From: a virus
Lineage: Duplodnaviria > Caudoviricetes
DNA length: 64,000 nt
Reading direction: 5' to 3' (one strand)
Virus record (IMG/VR): IMGVR_UViG_3300029305_001653
Location: 48,223 to 112,222 of that record
A program made the position numbers and the translations under genes. Within the stretch, counting starts at the first letter, position 1. Each line of letters starts with the position of its first letter. Shown here piece by piece: positions 50,546 to 57,120 of this stretch. A model generated the notes under the pieces. The model searched no databases. It worked only from the letters and a program-made list of their open reading frames with translations, and had not been told where the DNA came from.

Positions 50546-51583
50546 ATGTACGATTATCAATCCTTAGTAGAAAGAAAATTAGCTCCAAAAGGAGTATCAG
50601 GTAAAGATTCCATCTATGCTTGTCCTCTCTGTGAGAGTGAGGATACAGGTCACCACTTGTATGTAGACTATAGTAAAGGATATTGGCACTGTTTCCACTG
50701 CGATGCAGGAGGTAAGAGGATAGAAAGTCTATTAAAACTACTTAATATATCAGTAGACTATGATTATGAGATTCTTTATAATGAACAAGATGAAAGGTTA
50801 GAGGATATCTTCTCTCTAAAATCTACTAAGAAATCTTTAGATCTAGTAGATTACAGTACAGACTTAGAAATACTGACAGAATACTTTAGATTACATACAT
50901 CTTCTTTGTCGGAGTCTGCATATCTTTATTTGAAAAGTAGAGGATTAGATGACAGTATCATCTATAGTCTAGGTATAAAGGAAGGCAGAAGTAGGTATGG
51001 AGAAGATATAGTGATTAAAAATAAATCCTATATTGGTAGAGATTATAGTGGTCGTATTATGATACCTTCTTTGAGGAAAGATGGATTAATATCTTTCTAT
51101 GTAGGGAGAGACTACATAGGAGATAAGTCTCCTAAGTATCTAAACCCTCCAAAAGAGTTAGTTGCAAGTTCTGAGGATGTATGGTCTTTGGACATCATAG
51201 ATACTTCCACTGTAATCATATGTGAAGGTGTATTTACATCTATCGCTGTAAATCAAGCTTTAGGTAAATTGATATCCTGTGCTACCTACGGTAAGTCTAT
51301 AGCTCAGCATTCTAGTAATTCAGATGTGCTAGTGACTAGTCAAGGAGAGAAATTACTCAATAAGAAATTTAGTCAGTATATCATATTCTATGATAAAGAT
51401 GCTAAGTCATCAGCTATAGCTAGTGCTAAGTACCTTTATGAAAGAGGAGCTACAGTAAGAGTAGTTACTATCCCTGAATATATGTATGGACCTAAAGCAG
51501 ACGCAGCAGATATGAAACGAGAAGAAGTAATCCAGTGTATTCAGAACTCAATAGTATATGATAGATTCAGTGAGATAATTTGA
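50546..51583 (+). CDS. DNA primase
   Basis: CPLC..HH..HCFHC zinc domain; KYLNP; CEG; YDKDA TOPRIM; KDA. Confidence 0.9.
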   Translation: MYDYQSLVERKLAPKGVSGKDSIYACPLCESEDTGHHLYVDYSKGYWHCFHCDAGGKRIESLLKLLNISVDYDYEILYNEQDERLEDIFSLKSTKKSLDLVDYSTDLEILTEYFRLHTSSLSESAYLYLKSRGLDDSIIYSLGIKEGRSRYGEDIVIKNKSYIGRDYSGRIMIPSLRKDGLISFYVGRDYIGDKSPKYLNPPKELVASSEDVWSLDIIDTSTVIICEGVFTSIAVNQALGKLISCATYGKSIAQHSSNSDVLVTSQGEKLLNKKFSQYIIFYDKDAKSSAIASAKYLYERGATVRVVTIPEYMYGPKADAADMKREEVIQCIQNSIVYDRFSEII

Positions 51584-51593
51584 TACGAAGAGA

Positions 51594-51627
51594 GTAGCTC
51601 AACATTCACAATTCTTGCGTTACTTAT
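51594..51627 (+). promoter_or_regulatory. Class II phage promoter upstream of ThyX-like gene
   Basis: GTAGCTCAA-N15-CGTTACTTAT. Confidence 0.75.
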
Positions 51628-51684
51628 AATGTAAGAAGGGAAGTAGTTCTGCTTAAATTATATGAAGATAAGGAGATAGTAATT

Positions 51685-52797
51685 ATGGGAAAAAGTGAAC
51701 GTATGAAACAGAGATCTTATACAGGAAATATTCCTCCTAAAGTTTCTATTATAGGAAAGACAGAGAATCCTATAGGGCAGTTATTCTGCGTATGGTCAGG
51801 TACTCGTTATCCTGATATCATGACTCCTGAAGATATCCAACATATCTACGACAATCATGATTGTCCTGAAATATTCTTCAGTGAGCAAGACTGGAAGAAT
51901 GCTAAGATTATCTGTGAGTGGTATCCTGAGTATGCAGGAGAAGATGGTAAAGATTATAGAAATGTTATCTTGTCTATTGCTCGTAAAGTTATTGAGTCTA
52001 ATGTTCCTGCAGGTGAAGCAGTCCACTTCAATATTCAGATTGATGATGCTAACGTAGCTTGGAGAGAGCAGTTAGTAAGAGGTCGTATTTCTCAGCAGTT
52101 CTGGACTATGTCTACTCGTATTATGGATATGACTACAATGGACGTTAATATGAATGAGAGTATTCGTCTTATTGGAGGAGATAAAGCTGTCAAGGCTTAC
52201 AATGAGTGTGTAGACTATATAAGAGATACTTATAAGTTCTTAGTGGATGAGTGTGGAGTTCCTATGGAGGATATCAGACTACAGCCTCAAGGACATACTC
52301 ACAGAGTTTACTGGATGGTTCCTTTACGTACGCTTATTACTATCCTTAACAAGAGATGTGACTGGATAGCACAAGCTACACTGTGGACACCTATTGTATC
52401 AGGTATAGTGCAGGAGTTAAGAAGACTTAATATGTATGATATCGTATCTCCCTTTATAGGTAAGCCTATGGTGGATGTATCTTGTCATTCAGATTATGGT
52501 ATGTACTATGTATCTAATTACATCATGAATGCAGATAATGAAGATAGATACAGCGGTAGAGATAAAATTCCTTGTGACCCTCTTTGGCTTGCATATAAAG
52601 GATATCGTATGCCTGAACATACTGATATTGAATTCTATGATTACTTAAAGTCTATGTATATTCATCTTTGGAAAGATGATTATCTTGAAGTATTAAAGTG
52701 GGATAGAGAAAATCCTGAGGCAATAGGACCTTATGATAGACCTGCTAGTTGGTTTATTGAGAACAATAGAGAATCAGATATAGCATACTTAAAATAA
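51685..52797 (+). CDS. Divergent flavin-dependent thymidylate synthase (ThyX-fold) protein
   Basis: E..HFNIQI...EQLVRGRISQQFWTMSTR (RHRx7-8S-like), MEDIR..P, LR...KR....AQ. Confidence 0.7.
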   Translation: MGKSERMKQRSYTGNIPPKVSIIGKTENPIGQLFCVWSGTRYPDIMTPEDIQHIYDNHDCPEIFFSEQDWKNAKIICEWYPEYAGEDGKDYRNVILSIARKVIESNVPAGEAVHFNIQIDDANVAWREQLVRGRISQQFWTMSTRIMDMTTMDVNMNESIRLIGGDKAVKAYNECVDYIRDTYKFLVDECGVPMEDIRLQPQGHTHRVYWMVPLRTLITILNKRCDWIAQATLWTPIVSGIVQELRRLNMYDIVSPFIGKPMVDVSCHSDYGMYYVSNYIMNADNEDRYSGRDKIPCDPLWLAYKGYRMPEHTDIEFYDYLKSMYIHLWKDDYLEVLKWDRENPEAIGPYDRPASWFIENNRESDIAYLK

Positions 52798-52822
52798 GAG
52801 AGCCTATGAGCTCTCTTATTTT
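52791..52822. terminator. Intrinsic terminator after ThyX-like gene
   Basis: AAAATAAGAGAGC-CTATGA-GCTCTCTTATTTT. Confidence 0.7.
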
Positions 52823-52842
52823 GTTTAGAGAGGAGATAAATT

Positions 52843-53454
52843 GTGGCTAAGTTCATATCCATTTCAGGACCTTCTACTACAGGAAAGACATCTTTAATAG
52901 ATTCACTGAGTACATATTCTAATTTGAAGAATGTAGTATTCAGTCCTGACATACATGATGTAGTGTGGAAAGAATTAGTAGACTTAGGTTATTTTACAGA
53001 GTTTAAAGAGATAAGTACAGATAGTGAGTATCTTTGTACGTATATCATAAGATTGATCGAATATTATAATAAATACATAGATTCTTTTAAAGATAAAGAT
53101 GTACTAGTGATATTAGATGGTTGTTGGCTGGATATATCCATCTACTCTATATTAAATATGTGGTACAATAGAATCATAAAGTCTGTACAAGATAGTATAT
53201 TAGAGAGTATCTCGAAGTATGATGAGAGAATATCTAAGATTTATATCACGAAAGCTGATGATGTTAATTACCCTATAAGTAAGTATAGACTTAGAGGAAA
53301 GATAACTACATTCAGAGAAAATAGACCTTTAGAGTTAAAATACTATGAGTTAGCTAGACATTTTAAAAACGCAGTTTCACTTCCTTCATCTGACATATCA
53401 GACTCATCACTTTTTATATTGAGAGATCTTAAAGAACTAGGTCATCTTAAGTAG
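52843..53454 (+). CDS. P-loop nucleoside/nucleotide kinase
   Basis: ISISGPSTTGKT Walker A; ILDG..LD..IYS. Confidence 0.75.
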   Translation: MAKFISISGPSTTGKTSLIDSLSTYSNLKNVVFSPDIHDVVWKELVDLGYFTEFKEISTDSEYLCTYIIRLIEYYNKYIDSFKDKDVLVILDGCWLDISIYSILNMWYNRIIKSVQDSILESISKYDERISKIYITKADDVNYPISKYRLRGKITTFRENRPLELKYYELARHFKNAVSLPSSDISDSSLFILRDLKELGHLK

Positions 53455-53470
53455 ATGTTACGTTACTTAT
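53437..53470 (+). promoter_or_regulatory. Class II-like promoter upstream of second kinase and polymerase
   Basis: CTAGGTCAT-N15-CGTTACTTAT (degenerate upstream box). Confidence 0.45.
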
Positions 53471-53486
53471 AAGGGAAGGTGAAATC

Positions 53487-54188
53487 ATGATTACTACAGA
53501 GAAAGAATTATTATCGTATATAAGTTCTCAAGGTAAGTTAGATGCTATTGTAGTTGAAGGTTATGATGGCGTAGGTAAAGGTAGAGTTCTAAATATGCTC
53601 TCTGTATTTTACTCTAAAATACCATATCGTCCAGATTATAACTTGTGGCAGAAACATGGATTAGAGCAACCTGATAGATGGAAGATCTCTGGATTCTTCT
53701 GGGATATTTATAGTCATTTCATGAAAAATAGTGAAAGGACTGACTCTCTGATGCTATTTGATAGAGGAGTAATTAGTGGTGCTGTATACAATCACGACTA
53801 CTCTATCGCTAGAGATTATAAGAAGATGATAGGAGATATGAAGATACTGCATATATTAGTCACTTGTAGTAAGGAAGACTATCTAAAATTCGCAGAGTTG
53901 AGAGATTCCGTAGATTCTACGCAGTATGATATATGTCAAATATATACTAGTGAATATATGAAGTGTTTAGAGATGTCAGGTGTAGACTATGTAGTTTACA
54001 ATAATATTTATGATGAAGAGTTAGCTGGAGAAGTGAAAGAGACATGTGCAGGATGTGGGCATTATAGCTATGGTTGGTGCAGACATCCTGAGGTGAATAG
54101 TATCGTGGCATCTAGTACTATTAGGTGTGAGCTTTCTCAAGAAAGTGAGGTGCAGGATATTGGTAGCAAATCGGTGCAGTGCGTGTAG
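53487..54188 (+). CDS. Thymidylate kinase-like dNMP kinase with C-terminal Cys cluster
   Basis: IVVEGYDGVGK, LFDRG..S..VY; CAGC..WC tail. Confidence 0.75.
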   Translation: MITTEKELLSYISSQGKLDAIVVEGYDGVGKGRVLNMLSVFYSKIPYRPDYNLWQKHGLEQPDRWKISGFFWDIYSHFMKNSERTDSLMLFDRGVISGAVYNHDYSIARDYKKMIGDMKILHILVTCSKEDYLKFAELRDSVDSTQYDICQIYTSEYMKCLEMSGVDYVVYNNIYDEELAGEVKETCAGCGHYSYGWCRHPEVNSIVASSTIRCELSQESEVQDIGSKSVQCV

Positions 54189-57120
54189 TCTACATGAGTG
54201 TTCCTATCAACAGGTACAGATAGGAGGTAATTGTTCTCCTGAAGAGTGTGAGCTCCTACTAGTAGGAGACTTTCCTAAGGCAGATGATGATATTACAGGA
54301 TTACCATTCTCAGGAGATCAGTATAAATTCTTGTGGGACTTGTTAAGTCAAGTAGGTGTGAAGTATCAAGTAACTTATCTTATTAGGTGTATTCCTATTG
54401 ATAAGTATTCTAGGAGATATAGGAAACCTGAGCTAGATGAGTATGTTCCTTGTTTGAAAGAGAAATTCGAGAATGAAGTAGAGAGACTCAAGCCTAAGTG
54501 TATACTAGCACTAGGACAAGCTCCTCTTGATGTTTTAGTATACAATGGATATATTTCAGATGCTGAAATCAAGACTAACAATCCTATTAAGAGCTTCAGA
54601 GAAAGATCTCATAATGCTTTTATCAGAGGTCAGAAAATCACGTTCTTGTCTACTTATCATCCCTCTTATGTTGCGAATAATGATAACGAACAGATATATA
54701 ATCGTTTCATCGAAGATGTAGTATATGCTTGCAGACATGCAATGAAGGAACGTAGTGCTGGTATTTATAAGTCTATTGATATTAATGTTAATCAGTTAGA
54801 GAGGATTGTAGATATCTGGTGCAATGATCCTAGTATTGAGTGCGTAGGATTCGATACAGAGTCTAATGGATTGAATCCTTTAGTAAAAGGAGCTAAGATA
54901 ACTTCTTTCTCCCTATGTGCTGATGGAGTAACTGGTTACAATATATTCTTGTATCATCCAGAGTTAGATATCTCAGATGATGAGAGGGCTAGGATTATAG
55001 CTGCAGCGAAGAAGTTACTTACTACTAAGAGTGTAGTAGCACATCATGCTAAGCATGAGCATAGGTTCGTTAAAGTACTATGGAAATTCACTCCCAATAT
55101 CGTAGACGATACTATGTACATGTCTTATATCTTATTCTTAGCTTATCCAGGTATTAAACATAATTTAAAATTCCTGTCAGGTAGATTCTTAGGTATGCCT
55201 CCTTGGGAAGAATATATGGATGAGTATAGAGAAATTTTTGCTGCATTGAAGCGTAGGAAAAATTTAGATGATGTTAAGGTAAAAGAGTTAGTAGAAGATT
55301 TCGGTCCATATCTAGGAGTCACGTCAGAAGATATCTATAGATTCTGGAGTATCATCAAAGACCCTGACTACTATATTAAACAAGAGGAGTCAGATGATAG
55401 TGACGTATTAATGTGGATGGTTCCTGTACGTATTATGAGAGACTATGCAGGTATGGATGCTATAGCTGCTCTTAATCTTCGTAAAGTATTTAAACCTTTG
55501 ATAGATTCTGACCCTGGATTGTCTAGAGCTTATAGTATGATGGTTAAGGGTGCAGAAGCTTTTGCTAATATGGAACTCAAAGGTCTCCGTATAGTGGATA
55601 TTGATAGATGGACTAATATTTATCAAGAGAAGTTGGATCAGAACTTAGATATCTTGAAGAATTTTGATGAGGTAAAAGAATTCGAAAGAGAAAATGATGT
55701 GGAATTTAATCCTGCCTCTGCTAAACATAATGTGGAAGTATTCTACAATAAATTTAGATTTCCTGTAAAAGGTACTACAGGTAAGGGTGATCCTAGTACT
55801 TCTGAGACTGTACTCATCGATCTCATAAAAGAGTATAGAGAGAAGGAAGGAGAAGAGCGTAAGTTAGAATTCCTGACTACATTCAGAGAGTACAAGAAAT
55901 TGAAGAAGTTGATGACTGCTTATCTTGTAGGGTTACGTAGATTCATGCATGAGAACGATGCTTTCGATGGTAGAAAGTGTGAGTATGTAGAAGTACCTAG
56001 TACTCAGAAAGACCTTCACATTCATCCAGGATATCTACTGCATACTGTAGAAACTGGTCGTGTAGCTTCTCGTGACCCTAGTCTGCATACAGTACCTGCA
56101 GGATCAGATATTAAGAGATTATTCGTGTCACACTGGAAAGGTAGAGGAGGGTTAATAGTAACTGCCGACCAGTCACAGTTAGAGTTACGAGTACTCGCTT
56201 CTATCATTGAGAGGTATTATGGAGACCCTAGCTTAGCTGATGCTTATAGACAAGGCAAGGACATTCACCGATTCAATGCATCTAAAGTATTTGCAAGACC
56301 TGAGGAAGATATCGTAGATTCAGAACGTAGATTCGCTAAAACAATTTCATTCTCCTTACTTTATGGTTCTTCTGAGAAGTCTGTAGCTGAGAGTACTGGC
56401 AGAACTCCTGCAGAAGTACATGACTTATTCGAATCATTCTATGCAGCATTCCCAGGTATTAAGAAATATATTGAGTCTACTCATGACTATGCTCGTCAGT
56501 ATGGATGTGTTCGCACTCCTATGGGACGTATCAAATATGTCTTAGCAGCACAGAATCCTAATGATAGAGGTAAGTATTCTGCAGCATTGAGACAAGCACA
56601 GAACGGTATCATCCAATCTAGTGGTAGTGATCTATCATTTCAATCTATTGTATGGATGAATGATTATTTTAAAAAGAATAATCTAGATACTCAGGTAGTA
56701 GGATTTATCCATGACTCTATTGAATTGGACGCTCCTCCTGGAGAGTGGTTCGAAGCTTATGATGCTCTGAAGTATTCGATGAAAGATTTGAATGAGTCAG
56801 AGGATTGGATTACTGCACCTCTAGGTATTGATGTAGAGCTTGCTACCTCTATGGGAGATACTGTAGCTGTAAAAGATATGACTAAGCATGAAGATGGTTC
56901 TAGGACATTTGTATTGAAGGGTTATGATTATATCATAGAAGATATTATCAAAGAATCTTATTATTCTTATGATATAGTCGAAGATGAAATTTTAGAGGAA
57001 GAAGAATTCTTTAATCGTAGTGGAGATCTCGTTGCTCGTCGTGCTCTTAATCTTTCATTCGATGATAAGACATTTAATCTGAGAACTCATAAAATTAGAT
57101 GGAAGCCTAAGAATCTTTAG
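54127..57120 (+). CDS. Family A DNA polymerase with N-terminal family-4 UDG-like domain (SPO1-like architecture); probable start TTG 54160
   Basis: CxxC, LLVGDFP..PFSG, YHPSY; exonuclease FDTE/YAGMDA; DQSQLELR, RRFAKTISFSLLYG, IHDS. Confidence 0.93.
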   Translation: MSFLKKVRCRILVANRCSACSLHECSYQQVQIGGNCSPEECELLLVGDFPKADDDITGLPFSGDQYKFLWDLLSQVGVKYQVTYLIRCIPIDKYSRRYRKPELDEYVPCLKEKFENEVERLKPKCILALGQAPLDVLVYNGYISDAEIKTNNPIKSFRERSHNAFIRGQKITFLSTYHPSYVANNDNEQIYNRFIEDVVYACRHAMKERSAGIYKSIDINVNQLERIVDIWCNDPSIECVGFDTESNGLNPLVKGAKITSFSLCADGVTGYNIFLYHPELDISDDERARIIAAAKKLLTTKSVVAHHAKHEHRFVKVLWKFTPNIVDDTMYMSYILFLAYPGIKHNLKFLSGRFLGMPPWEEYMDEYREIFAALKRRKNLDDVKVKELVEDFGPYLGVTSEDIYRFWSIIKDPDYYIKQEESDDSDVLMWMVPVRIMRDYAGMDAIAALNLRKVFKPLIDSDPGLSRAYSMMVKGAEAFANMELKGLRIVDIDRWTNIYQEKLDQNLDILKNFDEVKEFERENDVEFNPASAKHNVEVFYNKFRFPVKGTTGKGDPSTSETVLIDLIKEYREKEGEERKLEFLTTFREYKKLKKLMTAYLVGLRRFMHENDAFDGRKCEYVEVPSTQKDLHIHPGYLLHTVETGRVASRDPSLHTVPAGSDIKRLFVSHWKGRGGLIVTADQSQLELRVLASIIERYYGDPSLADAYRQGKDIHRFNASKVFARPEEDIVDSERRFAKTISFSLLYGSSEKSVAESTGRTPAEVHDLFESFYAAFPGIKKYIESTHDYARQYGCVRTPMGRIKYVLAAQNPNDRGKYSAALRQAQNGIIQSSGSDLSFQSIVWMNDYFKKNNLDTQVVGFIHDSIELDAPPGEWFEAYDALKYSMKDLNESEDWITAPLGIDVELATSMGDTVAVKDMTKHEDGSRTFVLKGYDYIIEDIIKESYYSYDIVEDEILEEEEFFNRSGDLVARRALNLSFDDKTFNLRTHKIRWKPKNL

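Follow-up and report, generated by a model that had tools for sequence, protein, structure and literature searches.

The DNA analysed here (hereafter the window, 64,000 nucleotides) is the final 64 kb, positions 48,223 to 112,222, of the 112,222-bp viral contig IMGVR_UViG_3300029305_001653 from IMG/VR (Duplodnaviria; Caudoviricetes), and at 51685..52797 on its + strand we found a stop-free open reading frame encoding a 370-residue protein, P0001, with the Shine-Dalgarno sequence AAGGAG 9 nt 5' of its ATG. Alignments and a structural model support the view that P0001 has the fold of the flavin-dependent thymidylate synthase ThyX with an intact site for deoxyuridine monophosphate (dUMP), and that the motifs on its cofactor side have been rewired across the whole clade to which it belongs. 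We tentatively read P0001 as a dUMP C5-modifying enzyme that may make a non-thymine precursor. An earlier sequence-only reading of the window had also proposed a base-modifying enzyme of ThyX fold; the fold, the rewired motifs, a kinase-like neighbour, the polymerase that follows and relatives in phages with hypermodified DNA all speak for that proposal, and the product is the part of it that the sequence cannot tell.

The AlphaFold2 model of P0001, built on a 147-sequence alignment, is confident (mean predicted local distance difference test score 95.9, predicted template modelling score 0.91), and structure prediction against ThyX, which the sequence-only reading had suggested as a check, returned the ThyX fold. 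The model aligns with M. tuberculosis ThyX (3gwc) at Z 15.1 and a root-mean-square deviation of 2.7 A over 212 residues, with T. maritima ThyX (1o26) at Z 13.9 and with the UMP/dUMP methylase PolB at Z 13.5, and ThyX proteins were its sole real structural neighbours. At the level of sequence the Pfam Thy1 profile (PF02511) matches at 45.6 bits (cut-off 24.8), over residues 111-230 only (profile positions 55-171 of 191), and the NCBIfam thyX equivalog TIGR02170, whose cut-off is 87.9 bits, gives 21.1. The core of the model covers residues 15-334, and some 150 extra residues fall into two insertions and a tail, namely a helical block at ~40-100, a hairpin with helices at ~262-314 and the tail at 335-370. 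What had been described as a C-terminal extension is therefore real as extra length (370 residues against ~220 in T. maritima ThyX). An Atlas search with residues 250-370 returned Thy1-family fragments only, so the extension holds no independent known domain there, and no nucleic-acid-binding domain was detected in P0001 by domain and Atlas searches. Among viral predicted structures none spans the whole architecture (best TM-score by query 0.52), and PHROGs has no family for P0001 or for P0002, the product of the next gene. A ThyA-fold hydroxymethylase of the SPO1 gp29 or T4 gp42 type was considered for P0001 and rejected, given the ThyX fold and the lack of a match to the ThyA profile PF00303, which found nothing anywhere in the 112-kb contig.

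Residue equivalences were taken from a family-profile alignment to T. maritima ThyX over the catalytic core. P0001 retains Q129 (Q75 in T. maritima ThyX), R132 (R78), R134 (R80), S143 (S88), R145 (R90), R198 (R147), R215 (R165), R224 (R174), Q230 (Q180) and E111 (E58); it has N106 in place of H53, P108 for T55, A112 for H59, G133 for H79, I146 for Y91, P213 for N163, T219 for N169 and I228 for H178. We take the retained residues to correspond to the dUMP site and its phosphate-binding arginines and the replaced ones to lie on the flavin/folate side of ThyX; among the motif-1 and flavin/folate-side positions, E58 (E111) and R165 (R215) alone are kept. The pattern extends to the 127 aligned members of the group to which P0001 belongs (hereafter the close clade), in which the equivalents of the dUMP-site residues Q75, R78, R90, R147 and R174 are invariant (127/127) and that of S88 is S or T, whereas H53 has become N or D, T55 P, H59 S or A, H79 G or S, Y91 T or I, N163 P or S and H178 I. 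The element NVPAGEAV lies at residues 106-113 exactly as the sequence-only reading had it, and the replacement of the RHR histidine by glycine was also correctly reported, RGRISQQFWTMSTR occupying residues 132-145; P0001 thus reads RGR-x8-S where canonical ThyX has RHR-x7-S, and departs from the ThyX signature. At this position the close clade has Gly in 71 members, Ser in 51 and His in none of the 127, and the loss is therefore a clade trait and not a sequencing accident. In short, P0001 has the fold and the dUMP-binding residues in common with canonical ThyX/FDTS (T. maritima TM0449, M. tuberculosis Rv2754c), but lacks H53, T55, H59, Y91, N163 and H178 and is ~150 residues longer.

An exhaustive phmmer search of 1.84 billion representatives with P0001 gave just 256 proteins at E <= 1e-3 and did not reach canonical ThyX, so we treat the group as a separate family. 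The close clade (42-83% identity, phage-only, on contigs up to 142 kb) is monophyletic with 99% support and abundant in gut and environmental viromes, with more than 120 clusters at 90% identity; its sole cultured member is gp124 of Listeria phage LIS04. Beyond it lies a far family of 118 representatives at 25-35% identity (loci L009 and L013-L071), which resembles the close clade in its motif-1 changes, its insertions, the signatures KR-x-x-WIAQ..LW and NE.R..G.D..P.(C/D)PLW and a similar synteny with nucleoside 2-deoxyribosyltransferase-family (NDT), HD, kinase and polymerase genes. The far family differs in two features that the close clade has lost or lacks: it retains the RHR histidine in 103 of 118 representatives, and it carries four near-invariant cysteines at the P0001-equivalent positions 226 (R-x-C-W), 263 (P-P-C), 279 and 298 (P-C-P-L-W), within the C-terminal insertion and around it. 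All four are present in 115/118 far-family representatives and in 0/127 of the close clade, where these positions read D-x-(Y/H)-D. Because their presence is all-or-none, the four cysteines seem to belong together as a single unit, plausibly a site for a metal or an Fe-S cluster that canonical ThyX is not known to have, and the close clade seems to have dispensed with this putative site together with the flavin-side histidine. R215 and several other arginines turned invariant in the close clade, in which R207, R215, R288, D293, W234 and others vary little or not at all. FastTree did not resolve the branching order of the close, far and canonical groups or the ancestral cysteine state, and we therefore do not claim that the close clade is nested inside a cysteine-bearing family. 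New here are the delimitation of this clade, which lacks both the histidine and the cysteines and is represented in culture by LIS04 gp124, and the four-cysteine signature of its sister family.

The relatives of P0001 in cultured phages begin with LIS04 (OQ999172), which belongs to the genus Thornevirus and to the species Thornevirus SP15, the same as phage SP-15. Its gp124, annotated as ThyX, is 43% identical to P0001 over the full length, falls in the same clade, carries the motif in the variant R-S-K and sits three genes past an NDT gene, as SP-15 gp130 does. LIS04 also encodes a ThyA-type protein, gp9, with a P-C-H catalytic motif (L074:4786-5658), and the presence of gp124 alongside it in a phage of the SP-15 group was counted for a non-thymine role. 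Thy1 motifs have been reported in SP-15 gp9 (Kropinski et al., PMC5977210); if SP-15 gp9 is indeed Thy1, the first thymidylate synthase differs in fold between LIS04 and SP-15, and the long ThyX-like second one keeps its position after NDT. LIS04 differs from the window in having an SP-15-like sugar cluster (UDP-glucose dehydrogenase, glycerophosphotransferase and glycosyltransferase) and a larger polymerase, and in lacking the operon for KamA- and PaaK-like proteins described below.

In SP-15 about half of the thymine is replaced by 5-(4',5'-dihydroxypentyl)uracil bearing phosphoglucuronate and glucose, and Kropinski et al. (2018) described two Thy1-type proteins there and hypothesised that gp130 is a hydroxymethyluridylate synthase (PMC5977210), so that a Thy1-type enzyme feeding a modified base had already been proposed in print for SP-15. 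The thymidines of YerA41 and Carin-5 bear a linker of 104 or 88 Da together with a phosphate and sugars (PMC12686479, PMC13697223). In the Pbunaviruses F8 and 14-1 (2025) about a quarter of the thymidines, in TG context, give way to nucleosides with masses of 362 U and 390 U, which were interpreted as a sugar-alcohol derivative and a cyclised derivative of an aldopentose (PMC12191111, section 8); by mass arithmetic the 362-U nucleoside of F8 equals deoxyuridine with a tetrahydroxypentyl group. Pairwise BLAST gave P0001 no significant match to SP-15 gp130 and likewise did not detect YerA41 gp081. Both proteins are, like P0001, long, Thy1-like and near an NDT-like gene, and both were found by family profile, with partial alignments only. 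SP-15 gp130 (family hidden Markov model (HMM) E 1.2e-5; hhalign 78% over the N-terminal half; rank 14 among viral structural neighbours) is linked to P0001 by family profile and fold search only. YerA41 gp081 (family HMM E 1.9e-18; hhalign 97.5%; 387 residues, annotated 'hypothetical', L090:236-1399) matches through the signatures KR-x-x-WIAQ..LW..PI and DN.ER..G.DP..PDP and has a cysteine-less G/Y/D pattern like that of the close clade. It is listed as the thymidylate synthase homologue of YerA41 in the Carin-5 paper, the 2022 paper on YerA41 having nothing on such a homologue, and its profile link to P0001 is new. The Pbunavirus genus of F8 and 14-1 was represented by phage LS1, whose gp72 (family HMM 1.8e-29), together with gp068 of the Wifcevirus WFC (3.6e-27), is akin to the far family, with R-T-R, a cysteine at the 226 equivalent and P-x-C...C.

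By profile, NDT-like genes were also found in these phages (LIS04 gp121, SP-15 gp127, YerA41 gp086), as were P0003-like genes (SP-15 gp134, LIS04 gp126), P0003 being the kinase candidate encoded by the second gene after that of P0001 in the window. YerA41 gp086 (L090:3696-4232) is annotated as a mannosyltransferase and matches the NDT-like profile at E 1.5e-26. Taken together, a long, rewired protein of this ThyX-like superfamily is encoded in three independent groups of phages whose C5-chain uracils have been shown by experiment; this is a correlation. The contig of the window has the features listed for SP-15-type hypermodification modules (PMC13697223, PMC12686479), since a polymerase of the PolA family fused to uracil-DNA glycosylase (UDG-PolA), NAD ligase, a gene of the dUTPase superfamily (for the dUTPase/dCTP-deaminase type listed) and a thymidylate synthase homologue are all present.

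Another known system offers a comparison at the level of pathway logic. The Bacillus phages SPO1 and SP8 use a ThyA-fold dUMP hydroxymethylase, enzymes that degrade dTMP and dUTP, a kinase for hydroxymethyl-dUMP and a UDG-fused PolA, and base-replacing phages such as SPO1 carry companions of the nucleotidase and deoxynucleoside monophosphate (dNMP) kinase type. The window has in common with this hydroxymethyldeoxyuridine pathway a thymidylate synthase homologue, nucleotidase-type companions, a dNMP-kinase-like gene of its own and a UDG-fused PolA; it differs in that P0001 is ThyX-fold. Details of the SPO1 pathway are taken in part from PMC13697223.

Two P-loop genes and the polymerase follow P0001 directly. 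P0002 (52843..53454, + strand, 203 residues, AAA_28 type, Walker A GPSTTGKT) scores 23.6 bits with AAA_28, under the cut-off of 27, and its homologues are confined to the phage lineage of the window (records L010 and L012 and near relatives only). P0003 (53487..54188, + strand, 233 residues, Walker A GYDGVGKG) is a YorR/thymidylate-kinase-like dNMP kinase candidate. In PDB sequence searches the single proteins P0002 and P0003 gave nothing useful, and tblastn of both against 50,697 phage records gave no match. The P0003 protein alone matched weakly, but its family profile (24 members) matched YorR of SPbeta (2axp, E 1.3e-14) and Tmk (2pbr, E 1.6e-9) along positions 1-182, and deoxynucleoside kinases as well; because of these matches the description of P0003 as dNMP-kinase-like is justified by sequence comparison. 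For P0002 the family profile gave similarity at the level of the P-loop only, and we do not call it a nucleotide kinase. The claim that two nucleotide kinases and the polymerase come next is thus supported for P0003 and for the polymerase, and not for P0002. The polymerase (54127..57120, + strand) is a 997-residue fusion of an N-terminal UDG with a 3'-5' exonuclease and PolA, a replicative family-A polymerase whose best tblastn matches were the polymerases of SPO1-like Bacillus phages and not those of SP-15, LIS04 or YerA41.

The surroundings of the ThyX-like gene were compared in 65 loci (62 IMG/VR loci with the family pattern and 3 loci from assemblies), with neighbours labelled by iterated profiles built from the proteins of the window and counted within +/-10 kb. 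P0003-like genes were found in 33/65 loci, UDG-PolA in 31/65, NDT in 28/65 and HD in 27/65. Two conserved companions lie farther upstream in the window: an NDT-like gene at 46678..47532 (+ strand, 284 residues, the C-terminal half holding no known domain), and a YfbR-like HD 5'-deoxynucleotidase gene at 41625..42284 (- strand), whose counterpart adjoins NDT in ~27 related loci. Four arrangements could be distinguished. In type A (~28 loci) the order is NDT, HD, 0-4 genes, ThyX-like, UDG-PolA and primase. Type B (~30 loci) has primase, DnaB, a CobT/VWA protein, a sigma-like protein, a Thi4-like flavoprotein, a fusion of MazG with an NT5C nucleotidase, an aminotransferase of class III, ThyX-like, P0003-like kinase and DnaE. 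Type C, that of the window (L010, L012), has NDT, SNF2, DnaB, primase, ThyX-like, P0002, P0003, UDG-PolA and ligase, and in type D (L007, L011) the ThyX-like gene stands beside a single-stranded DNA-binding protein (SSB) gene and T4-like head genes.

On the reading that we prefer, P0001 would bind dUMP with a remodelled cofactor and one-carbon side and would add at C5 a group other than a plain methyl. Candidates for this group are 5-hydroxymethyl, which could arise if water captured the exocyclic methylene intermediate of ThyX chemistry, or a hydroxylated alkyl chain of greater length. The product would next be phosphorylated by P0003 and built into the DNA by the UDG-fused PolA, where it would substitute for thymidine in part or entirely; the NDT-like and YfbR-like HD proteins might reshape the pool of competing deoxynucleotides or provide a donor derived from a sugar. 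To our knowledge, all characterised makers of non-thymine C5-pyrimidine deoxynucleotides for phage DNA have the ThyA fold, so that a ThyX-fold enzyme of this kind, if real, would be a new catalytic solution, and it would give a handle on the synthesis of the SP-15-type C5-chain uracils, a question open since the 1970s.

Several observations weigh against this reading, some of them from G002 (record L011), a 142,407-bp genome with direct terminal repeats, rated 100% complete, that carries a close-clade member. In a whole-proteome comparison G002 and the phage of the window have in common the ThyX-like, HD, NDT-like, dUTPase-like and NrdD (anaerobic ribonucleotide reductase) proteins, gyrase, helicases, PolA and ligase, and the ThyX-like protein showed the highest identity measured in that comparison (59%, E 1e-152 by tblastn), its E-value being stronger than those of longer common proteins such as NrdD and UvrD. 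Homologues of P0002 and P0003 are absent from G002, and not every clade member therefore has the kinase as a partner. G002 has no thymidylate synthase homologue besides its clade member, neither ThyA nor a second Thy1 having been found there, and the presence of NrdD and of a dUTPase-like gene completes what is classically expected for the plain synthesis of thymidine monophosphate (dTMP); ten further G002 proteins, when scanned, gave no modification enzymes (homing endonucleases, a reverse transcriptase, an endolysin and unknowns). Moreover, the link to hypermodified phages may stem from a replication module inherited in common and not from function, and the recovery of long contigs from ordinary metagenomes argues against a very bulky, dense modification like that of YerA41, though not against bases like 5-hydroxymethyluracil. 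Nor are the RHR histidine and H53 known to be indispensable for ThyX catalysis.

These points feed the chief rival, which we hold to be a real possibility of lesser weight: that P0001 is an ordinary but highly divergent flavin-dependent dTMP synthase, whose altered motifs and extra residues would come from drift, or from adaptation to, say, a different reductant or form of folate in a host among the anaerobic Firmicutes. The ThyX fold with its complete set of dUMP-binding residues is what such an enzyme should have, the gene sits in the replication module, the usual place for phage thymidylate synthase genes, and in addition to its sole status in G002 and the NrdD and dUTPase-like company there, no ThyA was found in the 112-kb contig of the window. 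Set against this are a score far under the thyX equivalog cut-off, the clade-wide loss of the equivalents of H53, T55, H59, H79, Y91, N163 and H178, the second, ThyA-type enzyme of LIS04, the distant kinship to genes of phages with proven C5-chain thymine derivatives, and companions (NDT-like, HD nucleotidase, dNMP-kinase-like) that form the set of base-replacing phages. If P0001 nevertheless makes plain dTMP, ThyX would be able to work without the RHR and motif-1 histidines, which bears on its mechanism and on the design of ThyX-directed inhibitors.

It is rather unlikely that the substrate is something other than free dUMP, such as deoxycytidine monophosphate, UMP (as for PolB in polyoxin biosynthesis) or uracil in DNA or tRNA. 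PolB, a ThyX-fold UMP methylase, is indeed a structural neighbour, and the confinement of the Pbunavirus modified thymines to TG context (PMC12191111) is inexplicable by a pool enzyme alone; however, the arginines that hold phosphate and uracil in the mononucleotide site do not vary, a dNMP-kinase-like gene directly follows, and no nucleic-acid-binding domain was seen. Least probable of all, in our judgement, is a catalytically dead dUMP-binding protein acting as pool sensor, regulator or scaffold of a nucleotide-synthesising complex. The loss of several flavin-contacting residues, the RHR histidine included, would fit such a role, but very strong purifying selection on many polar residues outside the dUMP site and the standing of P0001 as the protein of highest identity to G002 do not.

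A bolder extension of the proposed C5 modification, which we regard as improbable yet worth stating, is that ThyX-type activation of dUMP at C5 might serve, throughout a long ThyX-like superfamily (the close clade, the four-cysteine sister family, YerA41 gp081, SP-15 gp130 and the Pbunavirus proteins), to form a C-C bond to a sugar-derived chain in place of a methyl group from methylene-tetrahydrofolate. As donor one could envisage the phosphate of a pentose or deoxypentose, which the NDT/DNPH1-like companion may release, or a C4 unit added onto the methylene intermediate, and the close clade, having lost the four cysteines and the RHR histidine, would be a cofactor-simplified version. Were this true, P0001 and its relatives would represent the long-sought first enzyme behind the 5-(dihydroxypentyl)uracil found in SP-15, the linkers of 88/104 Da in Carin-5 and YerA41, and the thymidines with sugar alcohols in Pbunaviruses.

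The phage that carries the window is large, of myovirus type and ~35% G+C, with a CheckV completeness estimate of 69%, and encodes DUF4815 baseplate and collagen-repeat fibre genes, NrdD and a full replication module; the dUTPase-superfamily gene lies at C1:2449-3054 of the contig. Its close relatives come from gut-type metagenomes, one of them labelled by its source as a Lachnospiraceae metagenome-assembled genome protein. On the 5' side of P0001 are the primase, DnaB, SNF2-type helicase, NDT-like and gyrase B/A genes, the NAD-dependent ligase gene comes after UDG-PolA, and beyond the gyrase genes lies a divergent seven-gene operon at 36496-42284 on the - strand. This operon begins with the HD gene and further encodes a BshB1/PIG-L-type deacetylase, an LpxD/NeuD-type acyltransferase, a PaaK-like adenylating ligase, a KamA-family radical-SAM aminomutase, a small crAss001_48-like protein and an unassigned 359-residue protein.

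The sequence-only reading had tied the ThyX-like gene to this glycosyltransferase/KamA/PaaK cluster, and a co-occurrence check did not bear out the tie outside the genus of the window. No KamA homologue was found in G001 (L010), G002 (L011) or G003 (L012), all of which have a close-clade ThyX-like gene, and wherever a homologue of KamA or P0002 lies on one contig with a ThyX-like homologue, the phage belongs to the genus of the window. The longest contigs agree in length with those of ThyX-like homologues at 116035, 67721, 115030, 90128 and 63783 for KamA and at 67721, 63783 and 115030 for P0002. G002 lacks the six other genes of the operon, HD being the sole one in common. An obligate partnership of the clade with the KamA/PaaK operon was therefore rejected; the operon is a genus-level add-on, which is also new here. 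The operon is confined to the phage genus of the window, and KamA homologues (45-55% identity) are otherwise common in bacterial genomes.

A shared class II promoter had likewise been said to join P0001 to the operon. The promoter-like motif is real: GTAGCTCAAC-N8-TTCTTGCGTTACTTATAATGTAAG lies at 51594..51635 (+ strand), ~50 nt 5' of the ThyX-like start, and further copies of this ~42-nt element, GTAGCTCAAC ... TTCTYRCGTTNCTTANNATGTAAG with a TATAAT-like core, are at 42371-42412 and 59960-60001 (+ strand), the 24-nt half of the motif having 3 matches against 0 in 100 shuffles. The copies stand 5' of gyrB (42371-42412), the ThyX-like gene and a gp32-like SSB gene (59960-60001). All three are on the + strand, the one at 42371-42412 facing gyrB and not the operon, so the motif does not tie the ThyX-like gene to the minus-strand genes. 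A scan of 51400-54400 for sigma-70 promoters and terminators gave nothing above shuffles. The copy at 42371 forms an inverted repeat with 42343-42354.

Some smaller features of these phages deserve mention. The replication module of G002 holds a reverse transcriptase and two GIY-YIG/NUMOD3 homing-endonuclease genes (L082:6526-7623; L083:10107-10784; L084:590-1405). Upstream of the window, at G000:C1:15348-15974, a second AAA_28 P-loop protein (E 5e-14), distantly akin to P0002 (27% identity), adjoins NrdD and a metallophosphoesterase. The type B cassette of phages with a DnaE polymerase (L021:2720-15971, L029) looks more elaborate than thymidylate synthesis requires. Finally, the C-terminal tail of P0003 (54040-54188) is Cys-rich, with the pattern C-x2-C ... 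C ... C ... C, and runs 62 nt into the polymerase reading frame as annotated from its GTG start; the tail may form a zinc ribbon, or else the true start of the polymerase may lie further 3'.

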